A stretch of 64,000 bases of DNA from an uncultured Bacilli bacterium (lineage in GTDB: Bacteria > Bacillota_I > Bacilli_A > RF39 > UBA660): contig CAKOLK010000001.1 in the NCBI GenBank assembly GCA_934096275.1, forward strand, positions 15,876 through 79,875, read 5' to 3'. A model generated the notes under the pieces. The model saw nothing but the letters and a program-made list of their open reading frames with translations. It had not been told where the DNA came from and did not search any database. The first letter of the stretch is position 1. Each line of letters begins with the position of its first letter. Position numbers and translations under genes: made by a program. Shown piece after piece: positions 12,181 to 57,969 of the stretch.

Positions 12181-13243
12181 TCAATCAGTAAGTTGATATG
12201 GTTGTTCCGAAGATCCATTTCCACTTGAAATCTTCACGTTAAATGAAAGACTTAGGACTGGGCGCACGGCATACTCGTTGTATTCGACGTTGCCGAAGTA
12301 GACGCTACCGTCATCATTAACAAGGAAAGCGAGGCGATCAGCTTCCGAAACCTGTGGAAGTAACCATGTAGTTACACTTTTATCTAACCAATTATTTGCT
12401 GTTTTACAATTTACAGAAGAAATATACTTATATAAACTGTTTGTACATTCTTTTGAAGCCGCATATCCATAGTCACTCGCATACATTAATGCTATTTTTT
12501 TATTTGCATCATTTTGTATTATTGGATTTGTTACATAATAATATCCTGTTCTATTTGCTTCATTTTTTCTTTCGTATTGCCACATTACATCCGATATCAC
12601 ACTTGCTTCTTTGTATCCTCCAAGATAATATTTTGTTGTTCCAATCATGTTTTTTGCATCACTTGTTAATGTATTATAATAATCATTATTTAAATATGTA
12701 TTTAATGTTCCTGTTACCCAATTGTTATACGTTTCAGTTGTTGTATCTTCTGTTTTATTCCAATATTTATTTCCTATTGAAGTATCTTTTATTATTTTAA
12801 TTCTATTTTCTACATTGCCATCTGTATCCTCGGTTGGTATTATTCCTATTATTCTCCATACTTCATTATTAAAAGTTACATAATTGTTTACATTTCCTCC
12901 ACGATATCTATACTCTGTTGCAAATCTTTCATCCACTTGAAGTGTATCATCTATTTCATGGGTTACTTTTTCTAATCCTCCTGTTCCTACATTAGATTCC
13001 GCAAAGTATAAGGCATTGTCTTTAGCTTTAACATATATTTTGATAGTATTCTTTGATTCTATACTACTACTCCATTTTGCATATGATGTATTTGTATAAT
13101 TATAAGAAATAATACCCGTTAATAAAAGTACAAAAATACCTATTAATGATAATAGATATTTATTATACTCTTTTACATCTTTAAATAAAGGGTTTATCTT
13201 ATAAGTATTTTGCCCCCCCCCCATACGAATATTTGTTTTCCAT
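12181..13243 (-). CDS. poly-G-gated surface-protein family, member 1 (short class); phase-OFF from the SD-proximal start in this assembly
   Basis: Signal anchor YLLSLIGIFVLLLTGIISYNY+TNTSYAKWSSS, then a ~280-aa domain shared with members 2-4 (TEYRYRGG..NNYVTFNNE.WRIIGIIPTEDT; KKIALMYASDYGYAAS; VRPVLSLS). GGAGG (13251-13255) lies 7 nt before the ATG at 13243. From that ATG the G10 tract reads MENKYSYGGGAKYL-stop. The long ORF is in frame only with ATG 13257 (inside the SD) or with the TATG at the tract edge. Confidence 0.8.
13213..13222 (-). repeat. homopolymeric G10 tract (C10 on the plus strand) in codons 8+ of member 1
   Basis: Counted by hand: tg-cccccccccc-atacg. Confidence 0.85.
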
Positions 13244-13273: not shown

Positions 13274-13367
13274 ATTCTATAACAAAAAAAGCACTTTTTC
13301 AAGTACTATTTTTCTCATTGATTCTTCTACTCAACAAACTTGACACGCAAACAATTATTGCTATATT
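13274..13367. promoter_or_regulatory. back-to-back divergent promoters (member 1 on minus; small-ORF cassette A on plus)
   Basis: Minus strand: TTGAAA (13297-13302), 17 nt, TAGAAT (13274-13279), with the near-palindrome GTACTTGAAAAAGTGC (13291-13306) over the -35. Plus strand: TTGACA (13340-13345), 16 nt, TATATT (13362-13367). Confidence 0.6.
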
Positions 13368-35757: not shown

Positions 35758-36462
35758 TTAACTAAGTAGTTTAATTAACATTGGTCCAAGTAACAGTAAT
35801 AGTAATAATGGTATAAAAAATATTACTGATACTATACTTATTTTTACTGGCATTTTACTAATTATTGCTTTAGTCTCTAATACTCTTTTTTCTCTTAAAT
35901 AGTCTATTTGGTTATACATAGTTTCCACTATATCATTACCAAAAGTATTAGCTTGTTGAATATTTAATATTATATTATTTACTGTATCACTAGGTATTCT
36001 TTTTCTTAAATCCTCTAAAGAACTATTTAGATCTTTTCCAAGTGTTATATCTTTTAATACTTTTTGAATCTCTAGTGATAAAGATGAATCTATATTTCTT
36101 GAAGTTATTTCTAGTGATGTTTTAATAGTCCTTCCTGCCTCAAGAGAAAGCGCAAACACTTCAAAGAAATAAAGAGCATCTTGTTCTAGTACTTTTCTTT
36201 TTTCATTTATTTTAGTATCTAGTACAATTGGTATAAATAATACATATACTAAAAATGCAATAATTGGTGCGAGTAAGTAACCAAAACTCAAGAAATATAA
36301 TATCACAAAAAAGACTAAAATAGAAGACACTAATCTAATATTTAATAATTTTATTGCATCATATTTAGAGTCTATTCCTAAATATGAAACTTTTTCTTGC
36401 ATCTTTTTAATTTGTTTTGCACTATATATTTTATATTCTATAATATTTTTTTTATTTCTCAT
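35758..36462 (-). CDS. tadC: Tad/type II secretion F-family inner-membrane protein (TadC-like)
   Basis: Polytopic GspF-like protein at the distal end of the Tad operon. Confidence 0.65.
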   Translation of the reverse strand: MRNKKNIIEYKIYSAKQIKKMQEKVSYLGIDSKYDAIKLLNIRLVSSILVFFVILYFLSFGYLLAPIIAFLVYVLFIPIVLDTKINEKRKVLEQDALYFFEVFALSLEAGRTIKTSLEITSRNIDSSLSLEIQKVLKDITLGKDLNSSLEDLRKRIPSDTVNNIILNIQQANTFGNDIVETMYNQIDYLREKRVLETKAIISKMPVKISIVSVIFFIPLLLLLLLGPMLIKLLS

Positions 36463-36463
36463 G

Positions 36464-37465
36464 TTACCACTCTCTTATCTTTACTATTTTCTTTACTAGT
36501 ACTATGTATATTATATATATTAGAATTATTAAAACTAATATTATATTACCAAGTGGCTCTTTAATAAGGGGTATAAAGTAAGTAGGATCCATAAAATAAA
36601 TAAGTACAAATATTATAAATGGAATAGCAACAAGTACTTTAAATACAAAATTAGATAGTGCAAGGGTTGAGTTCATTTCATCTTTTATTCTTTTTCTTTC
36701 TATAAAGCTTCTTTCAATCGAAGAAAATATCTTAGTAATTTTACCACCAGTTTCATTTAGTATTATTAAAGATGATGCCATATATTTTACTTCTTCTAAT
36801 TTAACACGAGAAGCAAATCTATCAAACACTACCTCTAATTCCAAACCATAAGTTAAATCAATTAATATTTTTTTAAATTCATTACTAATTGGACCTTCTA
36901 ATTCTGTTGATACTAACTCTACTGCTTGCATTATACTTCTTCCAGATTTAAAAGCATTATTCATAATAATAACTGCTTTTAAAAAATCTTGTTCTATTCT
37001 TTTTTCTTCTTTCTTTTCTCTTATTTTTAAAAACACATCAAGAATAAAGAAACCAAATAAGAATGATATTAGTATTTGAAAAAACGAAAACATTTTAAAC
37101 TTTAATATGTTAGATATTATACTTAAAAGTACTGCAAGTATTGAGAATAATATCTTTTTAGATATAAAATCCATACTAGTTTGTTTATGGGTATCGTCTA
37201 CCACTACGAATTTTTCATATTTTTTGCTATAGTCATTACAAACTTTACTTTTACTAATAGTTTTACTAATTGATTTAATAACTGAGTAATATAAGTTTTG
37301 TAGTTTTTCTATAAATGATATTGGTTTATCTGATAAAGCTGTAATAGAAAAACTAGATATTCTTTTTTCTTTTGATATTGAATTAAGTATTTTTAAAGCA
37401 AGTAAAAAGACAATAATTATTACTAAAATTATTATAAATTGTAAGGTAATATATAATTTTTCCAT
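36464..37465 (-). CDS. tadB: Tad/type II secretion F-family inner-membrane protein (TadB-like)
   Basis: GspF-like cytoplasmic domain (AFKSGRSIMQAVELVSTELEGPISNEFKKIL) between TM segments. Confidence 0.7.
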   Translation of the reverse strand: MEKLYITLQFIIILVIIIVFLLALKILNSISKEKRISSFSITALSDKPISFIEKLQNLYYSVIKSISKTISKSKVCNDYSKKYEKFVVVDDTHKQTSMDFISKKILFSILAVLLSIISNILKFKMFSFFQILISFLFGFFILDVFLKIREKKEEKRIEQDFLKAVIIMNNAFKSGRSIMQAVELVSTELEGPISNEFKKILIDLTYGLELEVVFDRFASRVKLEEVKYMASSLIILNETGGKITKIFSSIERSFIERKRIKDEMNSTLALSNFVFKVLVAIPFIIFVLIYFMDPTYFIPLIKEPLGNIILVLIILIYIIYIVLVKKIVKIREW

Positions 37466-37484
37466 AGTTATTGTCTCCTTTCTA

Positions 37485-38822
37485 TTACATTAATTTTTCA
37501 AATATATCATCTACATCTGTTATACCTTTGCTTTTGATCTTACTATATACTTTAGGAACATACTTGTATAAAACAAATGAACCATTTACTTCACCACTTT
37601 CAGTAAGACCTTTTTGTTTGAATGTAAATATTTCTTTTAAATTAATTCTATCATCTTTTAGTCCACATACTTCACATATTGAAGTAATCTTTCTTTTACC
37701 ATCTGATAATCTTTCTATATTAACTACTATATCAATAGCATTTTCTATATATTCTCTTATTGCTAGTACTGGTATTTGAATACCTGCCATAAGTACCATT
37801 GTTTCAAGTCTATTTAATGCATCTGATGCTCCATTAGCATGTAGTGTTGATAAAGAACCTTCATGTCCTGTATTCATTGCTTGTAACATGTCAAATGCTT
37901 CTTTACCACGTACTTCTCCGACGATTATACGATCAGGTCTCATACGAAGAGAATTTATTACTAAATCTCTTATTGTTACTTCTCCTTCTTTTTCATAATT
38001 CATTGTTCTAGTCTCTAAAGAAATAACATGATTTTGTTTTAGTTTTAACTCTGCTGCATCTTCAATTGTAATAATTCTTTCGTCTCCCGGTATGAATGAT
38101 GATAAAACATTAAGTACTGTAGTTTTACCAGAACCAGTTCCACCACATACTAATATATTAAGTTTAGCTCTTACACAAGCATCTAAGAATCTTGCCATAT
38201 ATGGTGTAAATGTACCATTTCTAATTAAGTCATCCGCAGTAGATAAGTTTTCTTTAAACTTTCTTATAGTAAGCACTGGCCCATTAAGAGCAAGCGGTGG
38301 TATTACAGCATTAATTCTAGATCCATCACTAAGTCTTGAGTCAACCATAGGATTAGCTATATCTATAGTTCTTCCAAGTGGTTGAATCATTCTTTGAATT
38401 GTTCTTATAATATGTTCATCATTTATAAAAGATACTGATTCATCCTTAATAATCTTACCATCTATTTCAATATAGATTTCATCCGGTGCATTAACCATTA
38501 TTTCAGTAATACTTTTATCATCTAATAATTCAGTAATTGGACCATATCCATTTATTTCATTTTCAATTAAATTAAATATATGGTTTCTTTCTAAATTAGT
38601 TAAATCATAACCTTCGAGTGATGTATTAATCTCATCATTAATGTATTCTTCAAGATACTTACTATCTGATAAGTCATTATCTATTATATTTTGTATTATT
38701 TTATTTCTTAAAGAATCTAATAAGTTTTTATCTTTAAAAACACTGTAATCACTAACTTCAGAATTAATGTAATTACTTTTTTTATTTTCTATTTCAAATA
38801 AATCAGAAAGTGTTTTTCTCAT
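37485..38822 (-). CDS. cpaF: CpaF/TadA family pilus-assembly ATPase
   Basis: Walker A VCGGTGSGKTT, Asp box ERIITIEDAAEL, His box ...TGHEGSLSTLHAN. Confidence 0.9.
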   Translation of the reverse strand: MRKTLSDLFEIENKKSNYINSEVSDYSVFKDKNLLDSLRNKIIQNIIDNDLSDSKYLEEYINDEINTSLEGYDLTNLERNHIFNLIENEINGYGPITELLDDKSITEIMVNAPDEIYIEIDGKIIKDESVSFINDEHIIRTIQRMIQPLGRTIDIANPMVDSRLSDGSRINAVIPPLALNGPVLTIRKFKENLSTADDLIRNGTFTPYMARFLDACVRAKLNILVCGGTGSGKTTVLNVLSSFIPGDERIITIEDAAELKLKQNHVISLETRTMNYEKEGEVTIRDLVINSLRMRPDRIIVGEVRGKEAFDMLQAMNTGHEGSLSTLHANGASDALNRLETMVLMAGIQIPVLAIREYIENAIDIVVNIERLSDGKRKITSICEVCGLKDDRINLKEIFTFKQKGLTESGEVNGSFVLYKYVPKVYSKIKSKGITDVDDIFEKLM

Positions 38823-39565
38823 TTAGACACCTCCTCAATAAGTTTTTTTGCAATCAATTCATAATGTTTATTATCTTTTCTATTATTTAATAAAATAGGT
38901 ATTTGTCCTGATGATATTATTTTATCTATTTTACTAATATGAAGTGTTTTAGGTATAGTAAAATCTATATTAGATTTAATAATAGTTCTCATGTCATAAG
39001 AATTATAATAGTTTCTACCTAGTATTGATTCATTTAATACAGTAGAATAATTAGTATAATTAGCATCTTTTAATATTGACACAAAAGTTCTAGTATTTTT
39101 AAGTGAATATAAATCATTACTAAATAGGACTAATATACTATCAGAATTATCAAATAAAATAACATTAGTTTCATTTAAAACATGAGTAGTATCTATAAGA
39201 ATAGCATCATATTTATATAAAACACTATCTAAGATTAAAGGAATATATTTAGAATCAATCTTATTAGCTTGTCTAGGATCTTTTGGAGCAGAAATTATAT
39301 CAATATTATCATTATATTTATAGATATAGTCTTCAACTTTTTCATACCTATTATTAGATAAATCAAGTACTAAATTAAAAACTGTTTTATCACATTTTAA
39401 GTTTAAAGAAAGAGCAATATCTCCCCCAAATAAGTCAAAATCAATAATTAAAACTTTATATCCAAGTAAATGGTAAGATCCTGCTAAATTAAGAGTAGTA
39501 ATAGTTTTTCCTGCACCACCCGTTGTGGAAGTAATCGATATAATTTTTCCTTTATCCTTTTTCAT
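38819..39565 (-). CDS. ParA/MinD-like ATPase of Tad loci (TadZ/CpaE-like)
   Basis: Deviant Walker A ISITSTTGGAGKTITTLNLA. It lies directly upstream of cpaF with a 4-nt overlap. Confidence 0.7.
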   Translation of the reverse strand: MKKDKGKIISITSTTGGAGKTITTLNLAGSYHLLGYKVLIIDFDLFGGDIALSLNLKCDKTVFNLVLDLSNNRYEKVEDYIYKYNDNIDIISAPKDPRQANKIDSKYIPLILDSVLYKYDAILIDTTHVLNETNVILFDNSDSILVLFSNDLYSLKNTRTFVSILKDANYTNYSTVLNESILGRNYYNSYDMRTIIKSNIDFTIPKTLHISKIDKIISSGQIPILLNNRKDNKHYELIAKKLIEEVSK

Positions 39566-39567
39566 AA

Positions 39568-39927
39568 TTAACCCTTCTTTATTCTTATTTTATTGTTTGA
39601 ATCAACATATCCTGTATAAACAGAATCTAAGTTGTATTTTTTAATTCCTATAATAGAACCAAATATTGAATCCACTTCTTTTTTTAGATGTACTTCACTA
39701 TTTGTAATATTTATTATTTTAATATCGGCATCATTATCTAATATTAGTTGTTCTATTTCTATTTTGTCTTTATTCATTAAAACATAATTCATTGCAATTG
39801 AGCTAAGATTATCAAGTTTATTATCATTTATTTTAATATAACAAGTATCAAATACATAAGCAAATATTGCAATAAATACTGGTATTAAAAAGACAAATAA
39901 TACTAATGACTGACCTTTATTGTTCAT
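39568..39927 (-). CDS. TadE/TadG-like pseudopilin
   Basis: MNNKGQSLVLFVFLIPVFIAIFAYVFD: a Flp-type leader ending in G, then a hydrophobic helix. Confidence 0.6.
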   Translation of the reverse strand: MNNKGQSLVLFVFLIPVFIAIFAYVFDTCYIKINDNKLDNLSSIAMNYVLMNKDKIEIEQLILDNDADIKIINITNSEVHLKKEVDSIFGSIIGIKKYNLDSVYTGYVDSNNKIRIKKG

Positions 39928-40264
39928 TAAATAACACCCTCTTGGTAGTTATCTTATATGGATTTTCAAAAAATGATGATGCGAATGGTGTAATAAGATT
40001 TACTTTTTTAGTAAGTACTATTTCAAGTTTATCTCCTTGATAATTATACTTCATCGTAGTATCAGAATCTAATAATTTATTTATCTCATCATAACTTTTT
40101 CCATTTTGTTGATAAATAGATACCTCATCCATTACTCCCTCAAGACTGTTTTTGTTATAAAAAACAAAAGCAAAGTCTATTACTATGAATAGTATCATAA
40201 TAATAATTGGAAGTATAATTACAAATTCCACCAAAGCTTGACCTTTATTATTTTTTTTCAACAC
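39917..40264 (-). CDS. TadE-like pseudopilin
   Basis: ..KKNNKGQALVEFVIILPIIIMILFIVIDFAFVF. The start is placed at GTG/TTG after GGAGAAGG, which gives a leader like its neighbours. The ORF-track ATG at 40306 would overlap flp by 59 nt. Confidence 0.6.
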   Translation of the reverse strand: MLKKNNKGQALVEFVIILPIIIMILFIVIDFAFVFYNKNSLEGVMDEVSIYQQNGKSYDEINKLLDSDTTMKYNYQGDKLEIVLTKKVNLITPFASSFFENPYKITTKRVLFNEQ

Positions 40265-40451
40265 AATAGCCTTCTCCAGCTTTAGCACCTTTTTGATACT
40301 CTTCACCCACTAAAGCACAAGATGATTTAGTAATAGAATCTTTTAAATAACCTCCTAAAAATGTTACTAAAGATATAGCAAGTACACTTATTAATGCAAT
40401 TATTAAAACATATTCTACTAAAGCTTGACCTTTATTATTTAGTCTCATCAT
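40248..40451 (-). CDS. flp: Flp-family type IVb pilin
   Basis: MMRLNNKG|QALVEYVLIIALISVLAI: the G/xxxxEY Flp processing motif. 67 aa. Confidence 0.8.
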   Translation of the reverse strand: MMRLNNKGQALVEYVLIIALISVLAISLVTFLGGYLKDSITKSSCALVGEEYQKGAKAGEGYCVEKK

Positions 40452-40866: not shown

Positions 40867-41959
40867 TTAAATCGATAGTTGATATGGATCTTCATATGTT
40901 CCAATGCCTGAAGATATTCTTACATTTGAAAAGAGAGTTAGAACTGGTAAAATGGCAAGTTCTCTTTTTCTGACATCGCCCCCATTACCAATACCACCAG
41001 TAGGACCCAAGTGAAAAACAACTCCATTACCACCGGCACATGGTGAAAGCATCCATGTAACCTGGCTCTTATCTAACCAATTATTTGGTGTTTTACAATT
41101 AATAGAAGTATCGTAGCCACTTAAACTGCCTGAGCATTCTTTTGATGCAGCATATCCATAATCACTTACATACATTATTGCTATTTTCTTACTTGCATCA
41201 TTTTGCATTATTGGGTTTGGTTTATAATAATACGCGCTTTCATATGCATTATTCTTTCTTTCATATTGCCACATCTCATTTGCATTTGCATATATATTTA
41301 TATATCCACCAAGATAATATTTTGTTGTTCCTATCATGTTTTTAGCATCATTAGTTAATGTATTATAATAATCGTTGTTTAAATATGTGTTTAATGTTGC
41401 TCCTGTCCAGTCGTTAAATTTTTTACCACTGTCATCACATTTTTCATAATCACTAGTTGTGCAATTGTTCCAAAAATATTCTCCAAGTGAATTATTTCTT
41501 ATTATTTTAAATCTATTTTCTACATTACCATTTGTGTCTTCAGTTGGTATTATTCCTATTATTCTCCATAATTCATTATTAAATGTCACGTAGTTATTTA
41601 CTACTGAGTCTCCTCCACGATATCTATATTCTGTTTTAAATCTTTCATCTACTTGTAATGTACTATCTATTTCATGTGTAATTTCTTCAAGCCCACCAAT
41701 TCCTACATTATCTTTTGCAAACGCTAAAGCATCTTTTTCAGTCTTGACACTAAGTTTTAATATATTTTTTGATTCCACACTACTACTCCATTTTGCATAT
41801 GATGTGTTTGTATAATTATAAGAAATAATACCACTAAGTAATAGCACAAAAATACCTATTAATGATAATAGATATTTATTATATTCCTTTATATCTTTAA
41901 ATAAGGGGTTTATCTTTCTAGTATTTTGCCCCCCCCCCATACGAATATTTGTTTTTCAT
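40867..41959 (-). CDS. poly-G-gated surface-protein family, member 3 (short class); phase-OFF from the SD-proximal start
   Basis: GGAGG (41967-41971), 7 nt, ATG at 41959, then MKNKYSY plus G10 gives ...GGGAKY-stop. The ORF-track protein starts at the TATG on the tract edge (41940). Confidence 0.8.
41929..41938 (-). repeat. homopolymeric G10 tract of member 3
   Basis: Hand count: gcc + cccccccc + at gives 10 C. Confidence 0.85.
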
Positions 41960-43691: not shown

Positions 43692-44423
43692 TTAATTTTC
43701 TACTTGTCCTCCTTTTAGCTTAACTTTAAATTGATAACTTGCACTTGATGAAGATTCAGCCTTATGAGAACTACCCCATACTCCACCATTCGCTTCACAT
43801 GTATCTTTTGTTGTATAAGTAGTATTACTACATACATTATTCTTATCAGAAAGTGCTAATTTAATTTCATCATCAGTACCTGTAACCCATGCTTTTAGTA
43901 CATAAGATACACTTCCTGTAGTGGTAAAATATCCATTGTCCAAGACAAATTCATTAAAGTATTTATTGCTAGATGTTCTTGACTGCAAGCTAGATACTAA
44001 TTCACCAGTTGTAGCAGTACCAATTATATATTCTTCTTTAGCTACTCCATCTAAAACATATTTTTTAAGTAAATTAATTTTTACATCATCATTTGTGATT
44101 CCTTCATTTGAAACAAGTTCAAAAGCTAAATCATAATTAATTTGTGCATCTCCATCAATAGTTGAGTTAACATCAAAAGTATATGCTTTATCTTCTGCAA
44201 TTGAAGTTCCAACTGCATCAGAAACAGGTTTTTGATCGGTTAAAGTCATAGCATTTTCTTTATCAAAGTTTATTTCTAGTTTTCCAGAGATTATATTGTT
44301 TTCTCTTGTACCAATAAAATTAGCATAGTAATATGCAAAAGCAGAACCTGCGATTAATATAAGTAGTACAATAGTAGATATAGTAACTATTAATTTTTCT
44401 TTTTTTGTTTCATTATTATTCAT
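43692..44423 (-). CDS. signal-anchored secreted protein, hypothetical
   Basis: TM helix LIVTISTIVLLILIAGSAFAYYY, then ..NNIISGKLEINFDKENAMTL... The opening resembles the post-anchor region of member 2 (..CELDINFKESDELML..). Confidence 0.5.
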   Translation of the reverse strand: MNNNETKKEKLIVTISTIVLLILIAGSAFAYYYANFIGTRENNIISGKLEINFDKENAMTLTDQKPVSDAVGTSIAEDKAYTFDVNSTIDGDAQINYDLAFELVSNEGITNDDVKINLLKKYVLDGVAKEEYIIGTATTGELVSSLQSRTSSNKYFNEFVLDNGYFTTTGSVSYVLKAWVTGTDDEIKLALSDKNNVCSNTTYTTKDTCEANGGVWGSSHKAESSSSASYQFKVKLKGGQVEN

Positions 44424-44534: not shown

Positions 44535-45597
44535 TTAATCTATTGATAATTGGTATGGTTCAGAACTTGTTCCTACTCCTCCAGATATTTTTGCATTTGA
44601 TGATAAAGTTAATGTTGGGCGTATTGCATACTTATAGACACCAACATCAAAATTACTGACATTACCTGTTGAAGAAATATAAAACGCATAAATTGAATAA
44701 CTTGAATACTGTGAAAGCAACCACGTATCTTCACTTTTGTCTATCCAATTGTTTGGTGTTTTACAATTTGTATCTTGATTATATTCAGATATGTCGCTTG
44801 TACATTTCTTTGATGCAGCATATCCATAATCACTTATATACATTAGTGCTATCTTTTTAGAAGCTTCATTTTGCATTACTGGATTTGTATCATAATAGTA
44901 ATTACTTTTATTTGCCTCATTTTTTCTTTCATATTGCCACATTACATCTGATGTCATTTTTGAATCTTTATATCCTCCGAGATAGTATTTTGTTGTTCCT
45001 ATCATACTTTTTGCATTACTTGATAAGGTATTATAATATGTAGTATTTAAATATGTATTTAGTGTTGCTATTAACCAGTTATTAGAATTATCAGTGTTAT
45101 TACGTGTGCTATTCCAATAAAAATTTCCAATAGATTCATCTTTTATTATTTTAAATCTATATTCTACATTATCAGATGTATCTTCAGTTGGTATTATTCC
45201 TACCATTCTCCATAACTCATTATTAAATGTCACGTAGTTATTTACATTCCCTCCGCGATATCTATATTCTGTTTTAAATTTTTCATCTACTTGTAATGTA
45301 TTATCTATTTCATGTGTAATTTCTTCAAGTCCACCAATTCCTACATTATCTTTTGTAAACTCTAAAGCACTCTTCCCAGTTTTAATATGTATTTTGATAA
45401 TATTTTTTGATTCAGTACTGCTACTCCATTTTGCATATGATGTATTTGTATAATTATAAGATATTATTCCTGAAAGTAATAACACAAAAATACCTATTAA
45501 TGATAATAGATATTTATTATACTCTTTTATATCTTTAAATAAGGGGTTTATCTTATAAGTATTTTGCCCCCCCCCCATACGAATATTTGTTTTCCAT
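44535..45597 (-). CDS. poly-G-gated surface-protein family, member 4 (short class); phase-OFF from the SD-proximal start
   Basis: GGAGG (45605-45609), 7 nt, ATG at 45597, then MENKYSY plus G10 gives ...GGGAKYL-stop. The long ORF is in frame only with ATG 45611 (inside the SD) or the TATG. Confidence 0.8.
45567..45576 (-). repeat. homopolymeric G10 tract of member 4
   Basis: Hand count: gcccc + cccccc gives 10 C. Confidence 0.85.
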
Positions 45598-45626: not shown

Positions 45627-45659
45627 ATTTTACAACAAAAAAAGCACTTTTTCAAGTAC
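45627..45659 (-). promoter_or_regulatory. member 4 promoter with the conserved near-palindrome; no small-ORF cassette at this locus
   Basis: TTGAAA (45650-45655), 17 nt, TAAAAT (45627-45632). GTACTTGAAAAAGTGC lies at 45644-45659. The mnmA stop follows 10 nt away. Confidence 0.55.
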
Positions 45660-49261: not shown

Positions 49262-49455
49262 AAAAACAGTTATATCCCAAAGGGACGAATAACTGTTAAA
49301 TCCGCGGTACCACCCAATTTATTATATAAAATATAATCTCTTTATTTATAACGGCAATCAACCGGCTTGTTCTACTTAATTCCTCAAGCACTCATGGTGT
49401 CTTTCATATTTAATTTTATACTAGTTCTCACCAAACACTAACTCTCTTAAATAAA
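49262..49455 (-). promoter_or_regulatory. T-box riboswitch leader of aspS (specifier GAC)
   Basis: The minus strand carries AGAGAG/GGUGAGA stem I elements and GAAAGACAC, which contains the GAC (Asp) specifier followed by A. The T-box core is AAUUGGGUGGUACCGCGG, and the terminator is AACAGUUAU...AUAACUGUU+UUUU. Confidence 0.8.
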
Positions 49456-49506
49456 CTTAAATATTACTTTTCCAATCAACGTTTATGTATAGATTATAGA
49501 ATATTT

Positions 49507-51838
49507 TTAGTTTGTTGTCAAGACTGCACGAGTTGAGTAGTCACTGTGCGCTTCACCATCGCTGGTGTTGAAGAAGAACGCGCCGGCGTAATCACCATTG
49601 TAATAGATCCCACCACGGAAGAGCCAAGGGATGAAATTGTTAGAGAAAACAGCTTGATCTGAATACCATGATTTAGTGGTTGAAGATGTTGGTGACATTT
49701 CAATTGTGGCGTCTCCTAACTTTCCTCTTGTATATTCTGTTTTACTTGTTCCATAACTATATTTATCATAATATTTCTTGTTTGGGAATGCATATGTTCC
49801 TGTAAATGATGTTTTATCATTTCCTAAATATCCTGTAAATGCTGAATTTTTATTACTAGATGTTGAATATCCACTCATCTGTTGTCCATTACTATGTACC
49901 ATATTACCCATCACGTATTCACATGTTCCACCACTCATGTCATATACTCCATATACATTTCCTGTTGTTGATGCGCTTTGTCCTAAAGTTGTTGTGTATC
50001 CATTACATGTTGAACCCCTACTTGCTGAACCTTCACTTTGTGGTCCACATCCTGTTGTATTTGTATTTGCACTATTTATTGCTATTTCTTTATTTATTCC
50101 ATATTTACTATGTGATAGATATGTTACTGCTCCCCATTCCATATTCTTCATCATATGAGTTTCAGCGGTTGTTGCAATACCATATTGGTTGCCACTTTCT
50201 CTCATCTTTTGGATTCCATTAAAGAATGTTCCTACTTGTGCTCCTCTCCATGATGTTACGTTTGGTTTTATTTGAGGTCTTATTGTTTGTAGGTTGCAGT
50301 CTGTACCTATTGCTACATAGTTAGTAGGTGTACATGTAGTATCACTTGATACTTCAAACTTTCCTACCCATATTCCTGTTAATCCTTCCCCTGTTTCTCT
50401 TACATTGTTATCATTTTTATCCCACCAGAATGCTGGATGCGTATAGGTTGATGTTCCTGCTTTTAATGATCCATTTGTACTATCTGTACATGTTTCTGAT
50501 GTACTACTAGTTCCAGTTACTGCGTCTACACATTTTATTGTACCACTACTATTTGTACCGCTTTCAAATTTTATTTTGATTTCTTCTGGTGTATTAGTGT
50601 TTAAATATGTATATGTATATCTTGGTATCCACACCCACATTGTATTGATACTTAGCATTGGTATCTCTGTTCCCGCATCTGCACTTACTATATCACTTCT
50701 TTTGCATACTGAACTACTGCAATTTTTTGTAGTTCCATCTTTTAGAGTTAACTTAGTCACAGGCACACCTTCTTTAGTATATTTATCAGCACTTGTTACG
50801 CTATGATTGCTAACTGAATTAATTTTATACATGGTACTACAAGTAGTGTTGTCTGTACAATGATATTTATCAATAACATCAGTATCAACATCATCATAAG
50901 ATGTATTTGTGAGTGTGTATAATCCTGTATCTTCATTAAATGTGTAAGATTTTCCAAACATGTAATTAGGTGGATAGAATTGTCCTATGGAATACATAGT
51001 ATAATCACTACCATCATAAGAATCTATAAAAAATGCTTTGTTAGAGCCAAATATATTAAACATGATTATGGCATATCCATATTCATCAATGTAATCGCTT
51101 AGTTTCATGCCATTGTTATCATATAAGTCTGAAAGAGATCCTTCTATTACTCCACTGCTGAAATCATAGTCTTCTTCCCATGTGTAATCATCATAGGACA
51201 ATAAGTTTACTTGACCATCCAATTGAGCCTCAGTTATGATAAGAGAACCGCTTGGACTTGATATATTATATATTCCAAATGCCATGTTATCAGTTTTATA
51301 ATATACCATTAAATTAACATAATCATATTCTGTGTTATTTATTGTAACTGGAGCATTCCAACCAAATTCAAGACTTGAAGATAAATTAAGCGAAATATTT
51401 TTATCAACTTTTTCTTTATACTTACTACTTAGCGCATCTGTTACTGTTACTGCGTTAGCCCACATTTTATTATTGTAATCATACCACTTATTAGACGCGT
51501 TTGAATTGGTTGCGTCTGCTTTTCTCCATACATTGTTATTACTATCATAATATACTGGTATCATATTACTTGTTAATACTGGTTTATTTGCACCGCTTGT
51601 ATCAAGGTTTACGTTGTTGCTTTTTACATAAAGTTTCAATACATTTTTAGATTCTACACTACTACTCCACTTTGCATATGATGTATTTGTATAATTGTAA
51701 GATATTATTCCCGAAAGTAATAGCACAAAAATACCTATTAATGATAATAGATATTTATTATACTCTTTTACGTCTTTAAATAAGGGATTTATTTTATAAG
51801 ATTTTTGCCCCCCCCCCGAACGAATTATTGTTTGTCAT
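49507..51838 (-). CDS. poly-G-gated surface-protein family, member 5 (long class); unambiguously phase-OFF in this assembly
   Basis: GGAGG (51846-51850), 7 nt, ATG at 51838, then MTNNNSF plus G10 gives ...GGGAKIL-stop. The main frame (..QKSYKINPLFKDVKEYNKYLLSLIGIFVLLLSGIIS..) is closed upstream by TGA and has no ATG/GTG/TTG before the anchor. The tract edge here is TTC-G, so no TATG exists. Confidence 0.8.
51808..51817 (-). repeat. homopolymeric G10 tract of member 5
   Basis: Hand count: gccc + ccccccc + g gives 10 C. Confidence 0.85.
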
Positions 51839-51874
51839 AGTTTTGCCTCCGTTTTGACTATTTTGTCTGGTTTT

Positions 51875-51957
51875 ATTTTACAACAAAAAAAGCACTTTTT
51901 CAAGTACTATTTCTTCTACTCAATAAACTTAACACATAAACAATTATTTGTTATTAT
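51875..51957. promoter_or_regulatory. back-to-back divergent promoters (member 5 / cassette D)
   Basis: Minus strand: TTGAAA (51898-51903), 17 nt, TAAAAT (51875-51880), with GTACTTGAAAAAGTGC at 51892-51907. Plus strand: TTAACA (51929-51934), 17 nt, TATTAT (51952-51957). Confidence 0.55.
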
Positions 51958-52444: not shown

Positions 52445-53040
52445 GTCAACAACCCTGCACTCAAAGTGCAGGGCTTGTGTTTACTGCTGAAAGCAGTTTA
52501 TATGACTAAAAGTCAATTTGTTATTTTAAATGTTTTTTCTATATCATCTGTTTGATCTTCTATATATGCCTTTATTATTTCTTGTGTCACTGTTCCTACA
52601 CTTCTACAAAAATACCCTGGACTCCATAAATATTGTCCCCAATACTTTCTTTTTAATACATTGAACTCTTCTTGCAATATCTTTGAACTTCTTCCCTTTA
52701 GATATTGAACCAGTTTTGATGGCGCTATTGTCGGCGGACAACTTACTAACAAATGCACATGATTTCTTGTTATATTTCCTCGTATAATAGTTATCCCTCG
52801 GGCAACACATCCCTGCATTAATAATACTCTTAATCTTTGTGCTACTTTACCATTTAATACTTCATATCTATATTTTGTTGTCCAAACTATATGATATTGT
52901 ATATCATATTGTGTATGACTTCCTTTTCTCATCCAAATCCCCTGCCCTTGGCTAACTATTATACTACAAGACAATTAATTTGTCAGCCAGTTCTAAAAGA
53001 ATTTACGCGCTAAATCACGTGGCCTGGTACCAGGGGTTTA
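52445..53040 (-). mobile_element. IS200/IS605-family element (tnpA only), boundaries approximate
   Basis: A Y1/HUH transposase gene flanked by subterminal hairpins: CCCTGCACT-caa-AGTGCAGGG (52453-52473), ACTGCT-gaa-AGCAGT (52483-52497), and palindrome CCTGGTACCAGG (53023-53034). It is locally GC-richer than its surroundings. Confidence 0.6.
52513..52932 (-). CDS. tnpA: IS200/IS605 family transposase TnpA (Y1 HUH)
   Basis: YDIQYHIVWTTKYRY, HUH motif NHVHLLV, and catalytic-Tyr region WSPGYFCRSVG. The start is at MRKGSHT.... Confidence 0.88.
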   Translation of the reverse strand: MRKGSHTQYDIQYHIVWTTKYRYEVLNGKVAQRLRVLLMQGCVARGITIIRGNITRNHVHLLVSCPPTIAPSKLVQYLKGRSSKILQEEFNVLKRKYWGQYLWSPGYFCRSVGTVTQEIIKAYIEDQTDDIEKTFKITN

Positions 53041-56373: not shown

Positions 56374-57969
56374 TTATTTTAACATTGATAATACTGAACG
56401 TGAAGCACGAGTGCTAATTGAAGAACCATCGCTAAAGTAAAAAGCGAATATACCGGCATAAGTTGTATGGCTATAAAGACCACCACGAACAAAAAATGAA
56501 TAAGTATCATATGGATAATATGTATAATCTTTATACCAACCACCATTTGAAAGTGAATTATTTTCTTGAATTTCTTGCGTTGAATCTCCAATTAGCCCTG
56601 AGCCATTTGTTGTTTTTTCTGAGTAATAATTATAATGATTATAATACTTTGATAGTGGATAGGTAGAAGTCCAGTTTTCAGCTTTACCAACTCCGAAACT
56701 ACTTGAACTTCCACTGCTCATTGTATAGTCCCATGCTCCTCCACTCATATCGTATATTCCTGTAATATTACCTGTTGTTGATGCAATTTTGTTCATATCT
56801 CTTGTTGTGCTTTTTGTGTTTGTATTATACTCAAGCAAATATCCATCGTATGTATAAAAACCATATGTATTATATTGTGTTGTTGATGTTTGATCTTCAT
56901 ATGTCTTATTTATTTCTGTTGATCCTCCAACATCTCCTCCACTTCTTCCAGTATAACATCCTCTTGAATTATTGATATTTATTTCTTTATTTATTCCGTA
57001 TTTAGAATGTGATAAATATGCTATTGCTCCCCATTCTATATTTTTGATCATGTGTATATCTATATCGTTTGTGTCTCCTGTTAGACTTCCATTCCAATTA
57101 AATGTTGTGCTATTGCTTTGTTCAAACCCATATATATTATTTGAGGCCTCCATTTGTCTTATGTCTTTAAACATGTATGATATTGTTTTATATCTTAGGG
57201 ATTGTACATCTGGTTTTATTATTATTATTGAATCTTCTGTAGAAGTTTTTGTTGGTATTGTTGTTGCACTATTTTCAAACTTGCCTACCCATATTCCTGT
57301 TAGTTCTTGGTCTCCAAAAGTAAATGCTGGATGAGTGCAAGTAGTAGAATTAGCTTCTAAATTAGCATTATTAACATATGTATTGAAACATTTTGCTGTA
57401 CCAGTGCTTTCTGTGCCACTTTCAAACTTTATATTTATATCTTGAGGTTTTATTGACGGAAAGATAGTATATTTATATCTTGGTATCCATACCCACATTG
57501 TATTTATATCATCCATTTTTATTTCTGTTCCTATATCTGCATTCAGATATTTTGTTCTGTTAGTAGAGCTTACTGTTACGGCGTTTGCCCACATCTTATT
57601 ATCATAATCGTACCATTGATACTTTTTACTGCTATTACTAACATCAGCTTTCTTCCATGATGAGCTTTCAGTGTCATAATATATTGGTATCATATTACTT
57701 GCAAGAAATGGCTTATTGGCTCCACTTGTATCTAAATTTGATTTTATATATAATCTTATAGTTTTGTTTGATTCAATACTACTACTCCATTTTGCATATG
57801 AGGTGTTCGTGTAATTATAAGAAATAATACCACTAAGTAATAACACAAAAATACCTATTAGTGATAATAGATATTTATTACAATCCTTTATGTCTTTAAA
57901 TAGGAGGGCTACTTTGCTAGTATCCCTTCCAAGCGAATATTTGTTTATTATATTTTTCACAGTCATCAA
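56374..57969 (-). CDS. surface-protein family member 6 (long class) with no poly-G tract and no shared promoter cassette
   Basis: MMTVKNIINKYSLGRDTSKVALLFKDIKDCNKYLLSLIGIFVLLLSGIISYNYTNTSYAKWSSS.... CTT GGA AGG GAT ACT AGC occupies the place of the tract. The body is homologous to member 5 (ANKP.L.SNMIP.YYD; MWVWIPRY.YT; THPAF; LTGIWVGKFE; MKN.EWGA..YLSHSKYGINKEI). Confidence 0.85.
   Translation of the reverse strand: MMTVKNIINKYSLGRDTSKVALLFKDIKDCNKYLLSLIGIFVLLLSGIISYNYTNTSYAKWSSSIESNKTIRLYIKSNLDTSGANKPFLASNMIPIYYDTESSSWKKADVSNSSKKYQWYDYDNKMWANAVTVSSTNRTKYLNADIGTEIKMDDINTMWVWIPRYKYTIFPSIKPQDINIKFESGTESTGTAKCFNTYVNNANLEANSTTCTHPAFTFGDQELTGIWVGKFENSATTIPTKTSTEDSIIIIKPDVQSLRYKTISYMFKDIRQMEASNNIYGFEQSNSTTFNWNGSLTGDTNDIDIHMIKNIEWGAIAYLSHSKYGINKEININNSRGCYTGRSGGDVGGSTEINKTYEDQTSTTQYNTYGFYTYDGYLLEYNTNTKSTTRDMNKIASTTGNITGIYDMSGGAWDYTMSSGSSSSFGVGKAENWTSTYPLSKYYNHYNYYSEKTTNGSGLIGDSTQEIQENNSLSNGGWYKDYTYYPYDTYSFFVRGGLYSHTTYAGIFAFYFSDGSSISTRASRSVLSMLK

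Follow-up and report, generated by a model that had tools for sequence, protein, structure and literature searches.

The window analysed here, 64,000 nucleotides (nt) of contig CAKOLK010000001.1 from an uncultured Bacilli bacterium, has a G+C content of 26.8% and contains five G/C homopolymers of at least 7 nt. All five are poly-G on the minus strand, all reach at least 10 nt, and all occupy the same position in paralogous genes, called here members 1 to 5. Eleven matches to a G9 pattern occur in the window against 0.02 expected; 0 of 100 shuffles reach eleven. Each of the five tracts lies 21 nt after an ATG, which in turn follows GGAGG at a distance of 7 nt, and the five leaders share the consensus ATG-N6-AA(C/T)-AA(A/T)-(T/A)AT-TCG-NNN. 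We focus on member 5, whose G-tract is, judging from its sequence, very probably the switch of a translational phase-variable (contingency) gene. The coordinates of all features are collected in the table.

On the minus strand of member 5, acGGAGGcaaaactATGACAAACAATAATTCGTTC, the G10 tract and CAAAAATCTTATAAAATAAAT follow one another. Translation from the leader ATG gives MTNNNSFGGGAKIL and a stop at G10, a peptide of 14 amino acids (aa), and peptides of 15-16 aa at G8 and G11. The G9 version encodes a 776-aa product, MTNNNSFGGGQKSYKINPLFKDVKEYNKYLLSLIG..., and the G12 version one of 777 aa; both begin MTNNNSFGGG(G)QKSYKINPLFKDVKEYNKYLLSLIG. Throughout, we call the leader-started, in-frame state ON and the prematurely terminated one OFF.

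The main frame of member 5 offers no way around the leader. A TGA closes it upstream, and between this codon and the tract it consists only of CAA ACA ATA ATT CGT TCG. Upstream of GTG 51726 it contains no ATG, GTG or TTG. This GTG, picked as the start by both the list of open reading frames (ORFs) and the gene caller, is preceded by TATCATTAATAGGTATTTTT, with no Shine-Dalgarno sequence; the next main-frame ATG is at 51564. Nor is there an ATG at the tract edge, because the last codon of the leader is TTC. A preliminary description of this DNA had stated the five tract lengths (10, 11, 10, 10 and 10), the TCG TTC end of the member 5 leader with its missing edge ATG, the main frame shut by TGA until GTG 51726, the position of ATG 51838 and its short G10 product, and the long MTNNNSFGGG(G) products of G9 and G12; the sequence agrees on every one of these points. 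It had also called member 5 unambiguously OFF: an alternative canonical start is indeed absent, but the adverb overstates a reading of consensus DNA only. The 14-aa peptide is the sole predicted product at G10 of the start codon that follows the Shine-Dalgarno sequence, and member 5 is a sound, clean test case.

We considered whether TGA might code for an amino acid (genetic code 4), in which case the main frame would be open upstream, and rejected this. Under table 11 both PolC (1452 aa) and DnaE (984 aa) are uninterrupted, 5 of 38 long ORFs end in TGA, and Trp is encoded by TGG.

Table. Features of the window (positions in the window; members are numbered along it).
Feature	Position	Strand	Remarks
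Member 1	12181-13243	minus	tract 13213-13222, G10; Shine-Dalgarno-following ATG 13243
Member 2	32177-33870	minus	tract 33839-33849, G11
Member 3	40867-41959	minus	tract 41929-41938, G10
Member 4	44535-45597	minus	tract 45567-45576, G10
Member 5, main ORF after the tract	49507-51807	minus	766 codons + stop
Member 5, first canonical main-frame start in the OFF state	51724-51726	minus	GTG, within the hydrophobic anchor
Member 5, TAA	51794-51796	minus	terminates the 14-aa G10 peptide MTNNNSFGGGAKIL
Member 5, poly-G tract	51808-51817	minus	G10 in this assembly; starts 21 nt past the start codon
Member 5, leader	51818-51838	minus	ATG + six codons ACA AAC AAT AAT TCG TTC (MTNNNSF)
Member 5, TGA closing the main frame upstream	51835-51837	minus	overlaps the leader ATG
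Member 5, leader ATG	51838-51836	minus	
Member 5, Shine-Dalgarno sequence	51846-51850	minus	GGAGG, 7 nt (caaaact) before the leader ATG
Member 5, promoter-like site	51875-51903	minus	TTGAAA, 17 nt, TAAAAT; promoter scan, 10/12 positions matching
33-nt cassette GTACTTGAAAAAGTGCTTTTTTTGTTGTAAAAT	13274-13306, 33916-33948, 45627-45659, 51875-51907		members 1, 2, 4, 5; with TTGAAA/TAAAAT
Hairpin	51884-51908	minus	AGTACTT-GAAA-AAGTGCT, then T7; overlaps the -35 hexamer; read from sequence, stem in RNA fold
Upstream conserved element	13326-13360, 33968-34002, 51915-51949	minus	
Sixth paralog	56374-57969	minus	tract-less; member 5-type ectodomain
Tad/Flp-like pilus set	35758-40306	minus	directly beside member 3
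243-aa protein	43692-44423	minus	between members 3 and 4; tract-less
T-box leader	49278-49488	minus	130 bits; before aspS
G+C-rich hairpin	52453-52473		adjacent to the transposase gene
IS200/IS605-type Y1 transposase gene	52513-52974	minus	immediately upstream of member 5

The dependence of the frame on tract length extends well beyond member 5. We collected 37 distinct family loci with a tract of at least 7 G from the window, related genomes and further contigs, representing at least six genomes. At 35 of the 37, G9 and G12 are the only lengths at which a long ORF runs from the leader ATG; one of the two exceptions carries a 1-nt deletion downstream, and the other has no ON state at all. Database paralogs whose tract is absent or interrupted, P0015 and P0130 among them, read through in the leader register; examples with an interrupted tract are MNKYSIGGEKNTYK and MKNKYSYGGGDSSK. 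Alleles in the ON state occur naturally as well. The conceptual G9 product of member 1 has a counterpart in P0005, with 100% identity over 353 aa. Members 2, 3 and 4 likewise have G9 alleles: the ON form is represented by P0251 for member 2, by P0010 and P0250 for member 3, and by P0241, found on 7 contigs, for member 4. A locus with 93% identity to member 4 (L001) has G9 as well, and two other paralogs, P0008 and P0050, are in the G12 form. Clustered at 90% identity, members 1-4 each group ON, leader-started alleles with OFF or G10 ones. The rule proposed earlier, that ON requires a tract length divisible by 3, is thus upheld by the 35 loci, the read-through without a tract and the natural ON alleles, and the ATG that follows the Shine-Dalgarno sequence is well supported as the true start at the level of sequence.

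The sixth paralog gives a tract-less view of the same arrangement. After AACAAATATTCG of the leader, its tract position reads CTT GGA AGG GAT, and the leader runs straight into the same anchor module, so that the protein (..NKYS LGRDTSKVA LLFKDIKD..) passes in the leader frame into the anchor. It looks like a permanently ON copy.

Gene callers place the start according to tract length: at an ATG inside the Shine-Dalgarno sequence, at the tract-edge ATG, or inside the anchor. Among the public calls, P0001, P0242, P0244 and P0245 read MEVKLWKTNIRMGGGQ..., P0003 and others MGGGQ..., and P0121 and others MLLLSG...; P0121, which begins MLLLSGIISY, is 100% identical to member 5 from its GTG start. 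One gene is therefore listed under several N-termini and lengths.

In members 1-4 the codon TAT precedes the tract, which creates an ATG at its edge. Member 2, at G11, is OFF in both possible start frames. Member 1 is OFF at G10 from ATG 13243, and at this length the edge ATG of members 1, 3 and 4 is in frame with the main ORF. The earlier statement that all five tracts are OFF stands for the ATG following the Shine-Dalgarno sequence, and needs the qualification that members 1, 3 and 4 retain an in-frame edge ATG with no Shine-Dalgarno sequence of its own. These three genes could be three-level switches, with full expression at G9/G12, weak expression from the edge ATG at G10 and none at G11, and not all five genes would then be OFF in this assembly. 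The ORF list and public callers do start them at the edge ATG or at the ATG inside the Shine-Dalgarno sequence, and the lic loci of Haemophilus influenzae are an example of two usable start frames. We nevertheless find this version unlikely. The edge ATG is preceded by AACAAATATTCGT, where a Shine-Dalgarno sequence is missing, and TAT is not conserved: TCT, CTA, ATT and TTC occur in its place, and G10 is equally frequent with these codons (13 of 20) and with TAT (12 of 17; Fisher p = 1). Member 5 and, at G11, member 2 would be unaffected regardless.

An assembly reports the population consensus of a site, and here the site differs between samples. Contig k141_480215 (ERZ27287251) is collinear with the window. 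At member 1, the locus L078 aligns with the window over 6062 nt with 0 mismatches and a single gap, G9 against G10; at member 2, L079 aligns over 6674 nt with 9 mismatches and again a single gap, G10 against G11. The positional ortholog of member 5 (76% amino-acid identity, likewise followed by aspS) has three forms in three sibling samples that are at least 99.75% identical elsewhere: G9 (ON, 804 aa), G8+TG (OFF) and G11 (OFF). In the second of these (L201, 557-566), the tract reads G8-TG-CAATACT in place of G9-CAAAATACT, which may reflect a genuine interrupted allele or else noise in the assembly of the homopolymer.

Homopolymer miscalling or an assembly artefact is a rival reading, under which the true tracts would be 9 or 12 nt long, the genes ON and the G10 calls wrong. 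G-runs are difficult for Illumina chemistry, annotated lengths depart from the real majority in Bifidobacterium breve (PMC9187656), and four tracts out of five at exactly 10, or G10 at 25 of 37 loci, could look systematic. We hold miscalling to be quite improbable, however, on several grounds. Contig names (NODE_, k141_, scaffold_) suggest different pipelines that arrive at the same G10 mode. Member 5 is G10 both in the window and in L077, an independent scaffold of 111 kb with 100% identity across 5.2 kb. Lengths of 9, 11, 12 and 13 are also called at other loci or samples, so there is no uniform bias, and a systematic +1 error would not yield G9 plus G11 alleles of one gene.

The reading frame behind the tract is maintained. 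The 766 codons past it contain no stop, in a genome (27% G+C) in which a random frame soon meets one, and comparison of member 5 with its positional ortholog L200 gives a nonsynonymous divergence (dN) of 0.132, a synonymous divergence (dS) of 0.417 and a dN/dS of 0.32. By this measure the ORF is under purifying selection. The open ORF and the dN/dS ratio together describe a working gene that is out of frame in the consensus, and no pseudogene. Decay of member 5, with a frameshift that fell into the G-run by coincidence, would agree with its being seen in the OFF state only, under the same truncated call on three contigs. It hardly agrees with the length of the open frame or with the dN/dS of 0.32 against an ortholog that is itself ON (G9) in one sample; moreover, the promoter, Shine-Dalgarno sequence and leader cassette show no damage and match those of the other members exactly. 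We regard decay as scarcely credible.

The N-terminal anchor or signal region of member 5, LLSLIGIFVLLLSGIISY, is followed by a large ectodomain. A basic N-terminus, an 18-residue hydrophobic stretch and a possible cleavage site between SYA and K suggest that the protein is exported or surface-anchored. No lipobox was found in the family proteins. In the database paralogs P0080, P0089 and P0110, an ectodomain of the family carries a type IV pilin-like N-terminus, KGFALAEIL, that replaces the usual anchor.

Member 5 has no Pfam match, and member 1 scores 23.2 bits against DUF6273 (PF19789), whose gathering cut-off is 23.5, with many close homologs carrying a precomputed PF19789 hit. The Pfam and NCBIfam matches of the family are all sub-threshold (DUF6273, a dockerin-like stretch in member 2, a pilin-like N-terminus), and sequence searches of the PDB returned no match even at E = 10. 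The mean predicted local distance difference test score (pLDDT) is 58 for the AlphaFold model of member 4 and 46.6 for the member 5 model, so that both have low confidence. With the member 4 model, Foldseek gave a single significant match, to the cryo-EM structure of the immunoglobulin A (IgA) peptidase 9qa6 of Thomasclavelia ramosa (E = 1.3e-4, query-normalised TM-score 0.32). This apparent resemblance is a lead only; inspection by eye revealed no HEXXH motif in the family sequences.

The distribution of tract lengths is uneven. The 37 DNA loci divide into 5 with G9, 25 with G10, 6 with G11, 0 with G12 and 1 with G13. Among 82 tract-bearing gene calls, 22 are G9 (ON), 38 are G10, 2 are G12 (ON) and 20 are truncated, that is G11, G8, or G10 without a tract-edge ATG. 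ON loci are under-represented in the genomes (5 of 37 against one third, binomial p = 0.006) and not so in the protein census (24 of 82, p = 0.26), which favours full-length calls. The tract-edge ATG was rejected as a cause of the G10 excess, G10 being equally common at loci that lack it. In Campylobacter jejuni, poly-G tracts of G8/G9 mostly gain a base and those of G10/G11 mostly lose one, so that lengths cluster at G9-G10 (PMC3401435). By analogy, a similar mutational pull towards G10 would be the simplest explanation of the mode seen here, and selection against expression may add to it.

Recoding would explain the mode differently. A +1 ribosomal frameshift on rare GGG codons, or slippage of RNA polymerase on the G-run, would bring part of the products back into frame and turn G10 into a state of low expression. 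GGG is rare, at 2.8 per 1000 codons; the P-site tRNA-Gly can re-pair perfectly one base further along the G-run; and G10 is the mode with or without an alternative start. Tract length is, however, not conserved among orthologs, and in-frame G9/G12 alleles are common, unlike at programmed frameshift sites. A conserved shift site of that type is absent from this family, in which lengths range over 9-13 and the frame is intact in 24 of 82 gene calls. A simple fold of the leader region shows no evident stimulatory RNA structure, with a z-score of 0.12 relative to shuffled controls. Transcriptional slippage reportedly affects G/C runs less readily than A/T runs (Wagner 1990, cited in PMC5084427), and the G9-G10 mode of C. 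jejuni is explained by mutational bias alone (PMC3401435). Taken together, we judge recoding improbable.

A related, and similarly rather improbable, possibility is that G10 is not silent: low +1 slippage on the GGG codons or the G-run would leave each 'OFF' paralog faintly expressed. The family would then sit at G10 across species for that reason, and the switch would set an expression level across dozens of surface proteins instead of a full ON/OFF choice.

Phase variation by tract length is the reading that we prefer, and we propose the following sequence of events. The conserved cassette (TTGAAA/TAAAAT, GGAGG, ATG) would drive a short leader, M-x-N-x-x-S-x, with the poly-G directly after it and the anchor or signal region and the ectodomain behind. 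During replication, slipped-strand mispairing would add or remove single G's, presumably reversibly and at a high rate. At G9 or G12 the leader would be in frame, and a surface-anchored or secreted protein would be made; at G8, G10 or G11 the ribosome would halt after 13-17 codons, ahead of the anchor, and the gene would be silent. Member 5 at G10, with no alternative start codon, would represent this silent state. Since each paralog would switch alone, with five in the window and dozens per related genome, a clonal population would become a mosaic of cells that display different subsets of surface proteins. Host antibody, phage or adhesion to a niche are the candidate selective agents.

This proposal is built on the anatomy of the locus, the frame rule, the tract polymorphism between assemblies, the natural ON alleles and the purifying selection on the ORF. 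The sequence-level hallmarks of a contingency locus are present here: a 5' repeat of hypermutable length, ON/OFF change by one unit, variation between samples and a maintained ORF. Several observations weigh against the proposal. Member 5 itself is OFF wherever it is seen, with the same GTG-start call on three contigs (the DNA was read for one of them, and is G10), and the protein collection contains no ON allele of it at 90% identity or more. Three consecutive rare GGG codons make some ribosomal slippage possible. Published G-tract lengths may depart from the real majority length (PMC9187656). Finally, G10, one step off ON, is the mode everywhere (25 of the 37 DNA loci), and this could mean more than mutational bias.

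The 33-nt cassette of members 1, 2, 4 and 5 occurs nowhere else in the window, where 0 copies are expected by chance; by alignment, member 3 has a diverged copy. The hairpin that overlaps the -35 hexamer of member 5 looks like a putative terminator for upstream transcription. It escaped a terminator scan, as G-C pairs are too scarce in its stem. Searches of Rfam with the leader and the upstream cassette found no known RNA, and elsewhere just a T-box and a tRNA.

Members 1, 3, 4 and 5 and the sixth paralog have a common N-terminal module, NPLFKD(I/V)KEYNKYLLSLIGIFVLLL(S/T)GIISYNYTNTSYAKWSSS. We compared the profiles of the two ectodomain families, the DUF6273-like one (members 1-4) and the large member 5/6 type, and residues 5-73 are the only part common to both. 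Member 2 has the same leader and tract followed by a different anchor and then by dockerin-like and DUF6273-like parts. Because only the N-terminal module is common between the ectodomain families, the predicted switch is a module of promoter, leader, tract and anchor that is joined to differing extracellular parts.

Directly upstream of the cassette, members 1, 2 and 5 only share a further conserved element, about 35-70 nt long (..AAATAATTGTTTGCGTGTCAAGTTTATTGAGTAGA), where chance would give 0 copies; it may mark the edge of the duplicated cassette. In related species (CAKOMW, CAKOJO; loci L004, L006, L010, L014, L023, L024 and others), ACACCTAA(T/C)AAGTAATATG precedes the leader and tract, and GGAGG is missing. 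The signal for translation start in the cassette thus varies from one species to another, even though these loci retain the leader nucleotides AACAAATATTCG.

The family genes stand as single units among housekeeping genes. Upstream of member 5 lie genes for DnaE and for the IS200/IS605-type transposase, the latter with a G+C-rich hairpin beside it; at the ortholog locus L200 of another species, an AbiEii gene takes the position of the transposase. Downstream, a T-box leader begins 19 nt past the member 5 stop and precedes aspS. The genes mnmA, ddl and polC, DUF2207 genes and a Tad-like pilus set are found near other members. The pilus set comprises two TadE-like genes, a CpaE/TadZ-like ATPase, a CpaF/TadA-like ATPase and two T2SSF-type membrane proteins. 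The 243-aa protein encoded between members 3 and 4 has an N-terminal membrane anchor and a weak DUF7359 match.

Exact gene calls of all five members are found on one 160,333-nt contig, in NCBI and in the European Nucleotide Archive (ENA). Relatives come almost only from four 'uncultured Bacilli bacterium' genomes of Hadza gut metagenomes and from one other Bacilli metagenome-assembled genome (MAG), and the related genomes hold dozens of family copies each. In the protein collection, relatives number 2030 for the member 4 type and 4627 for the member 5 type; almost all stem from metagenome assemblies and lack names. A scan of metagenome DNA with GGGGGGGGCAAAATAC returned at least 120 matches, and five family loci are among the 120 listed.

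Phase variation by simple repeats is textbook knowledge for Campylobacter, Neisseria and Haemophilus. To our knowledge, it is barely documented in Firmicutes or Bacilli that live as gut commensals. Here, a small clade of uncultured Bacilli with genomes assembled from Hadza and other gut metagenomes appears to carry a large surface-protein family under one and the same poly-G cassette. This suggests that these gut bacteria live by diversifying their surface stochastically. Public calls for its genes start at artefactual codons or are truncated, and annotation pipelines and pangenome counts therefore misread the family. The leader of member 5 would make a clean construct for gauging G10 silencing in a Gram-positive host.

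Four known systems come closest in logic. One is C. jejuni, which has about 29 poly-G/C contingency loci in strain NCTC11168 and, like the genome studied here, a low G+C content with G8-11 runs inside ORFs; single-base indels switch surface-related genes in both, and lengths cluster at 9-10 (PMC3401435). Switching rates of its poly-G tracts range from 1e-4 to 4e-3 per division (PMC3401435). The tracts of C. jejuni are scattered in unrelated genes, whereas those described here sit at codon 8 of one paralogous family behind a common promoter and leader cassette. The mode is G9 there and G10 here, and the host, unlike C. jejuni, is an uncultured member of the gut Bacilli of Gram-positive type.

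The opa genes of Neisseria resemble this family in being dispersed surface-protein paralogs, each with its own repeat, that switch independently and are mostly OFF. The opa repeat sits in the 5' coding region, before or within the part for the signal peptide. It is made of CTCTT pentamers and governs outer-membrane beta-barrels of a Gram-negative pathogen; in our family the repeat is a homopolymer and the ectodomains are unrelated. The opa repertoire counts about 11 genes with stochastic switching (PMC3745409).

The pilus genes of B. breve share with this family a gut commensal host of Gram-positive architecture and an intragenic G10-G12 tract between the export signal and the body of the protein (PMC9187656). 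In B. breve and in other bifidobacterial sortase-pilus tracts, the annotated state is OFF and an ON minority is enriched in vivo (PMC9187656). Bifidobacteria switch one or two pilus operons in a high-G+C actinobacterium, in contrast to dozens of monocistronic genes at 27% G+C, and their tract comes after the signal peptide, not before the anchor.

The vlp and vsa systems of Mycoplasma belong to relatives within the Bacilli/Mollicutes, with small A+T-rich genomes, in which simple repeats switch the genes of surface-protein families one by one. They rely mostly on poly-A or other repeats in promoters, or on site-specific inversion, and their products are lipoproteins; the genome studied here also differs in using genetic code 11. 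Set beside these systems, the mechanism that we propose is an ordinary one; what is new is the lineage that hosts it, how large the family is and the modular build of its cassette.

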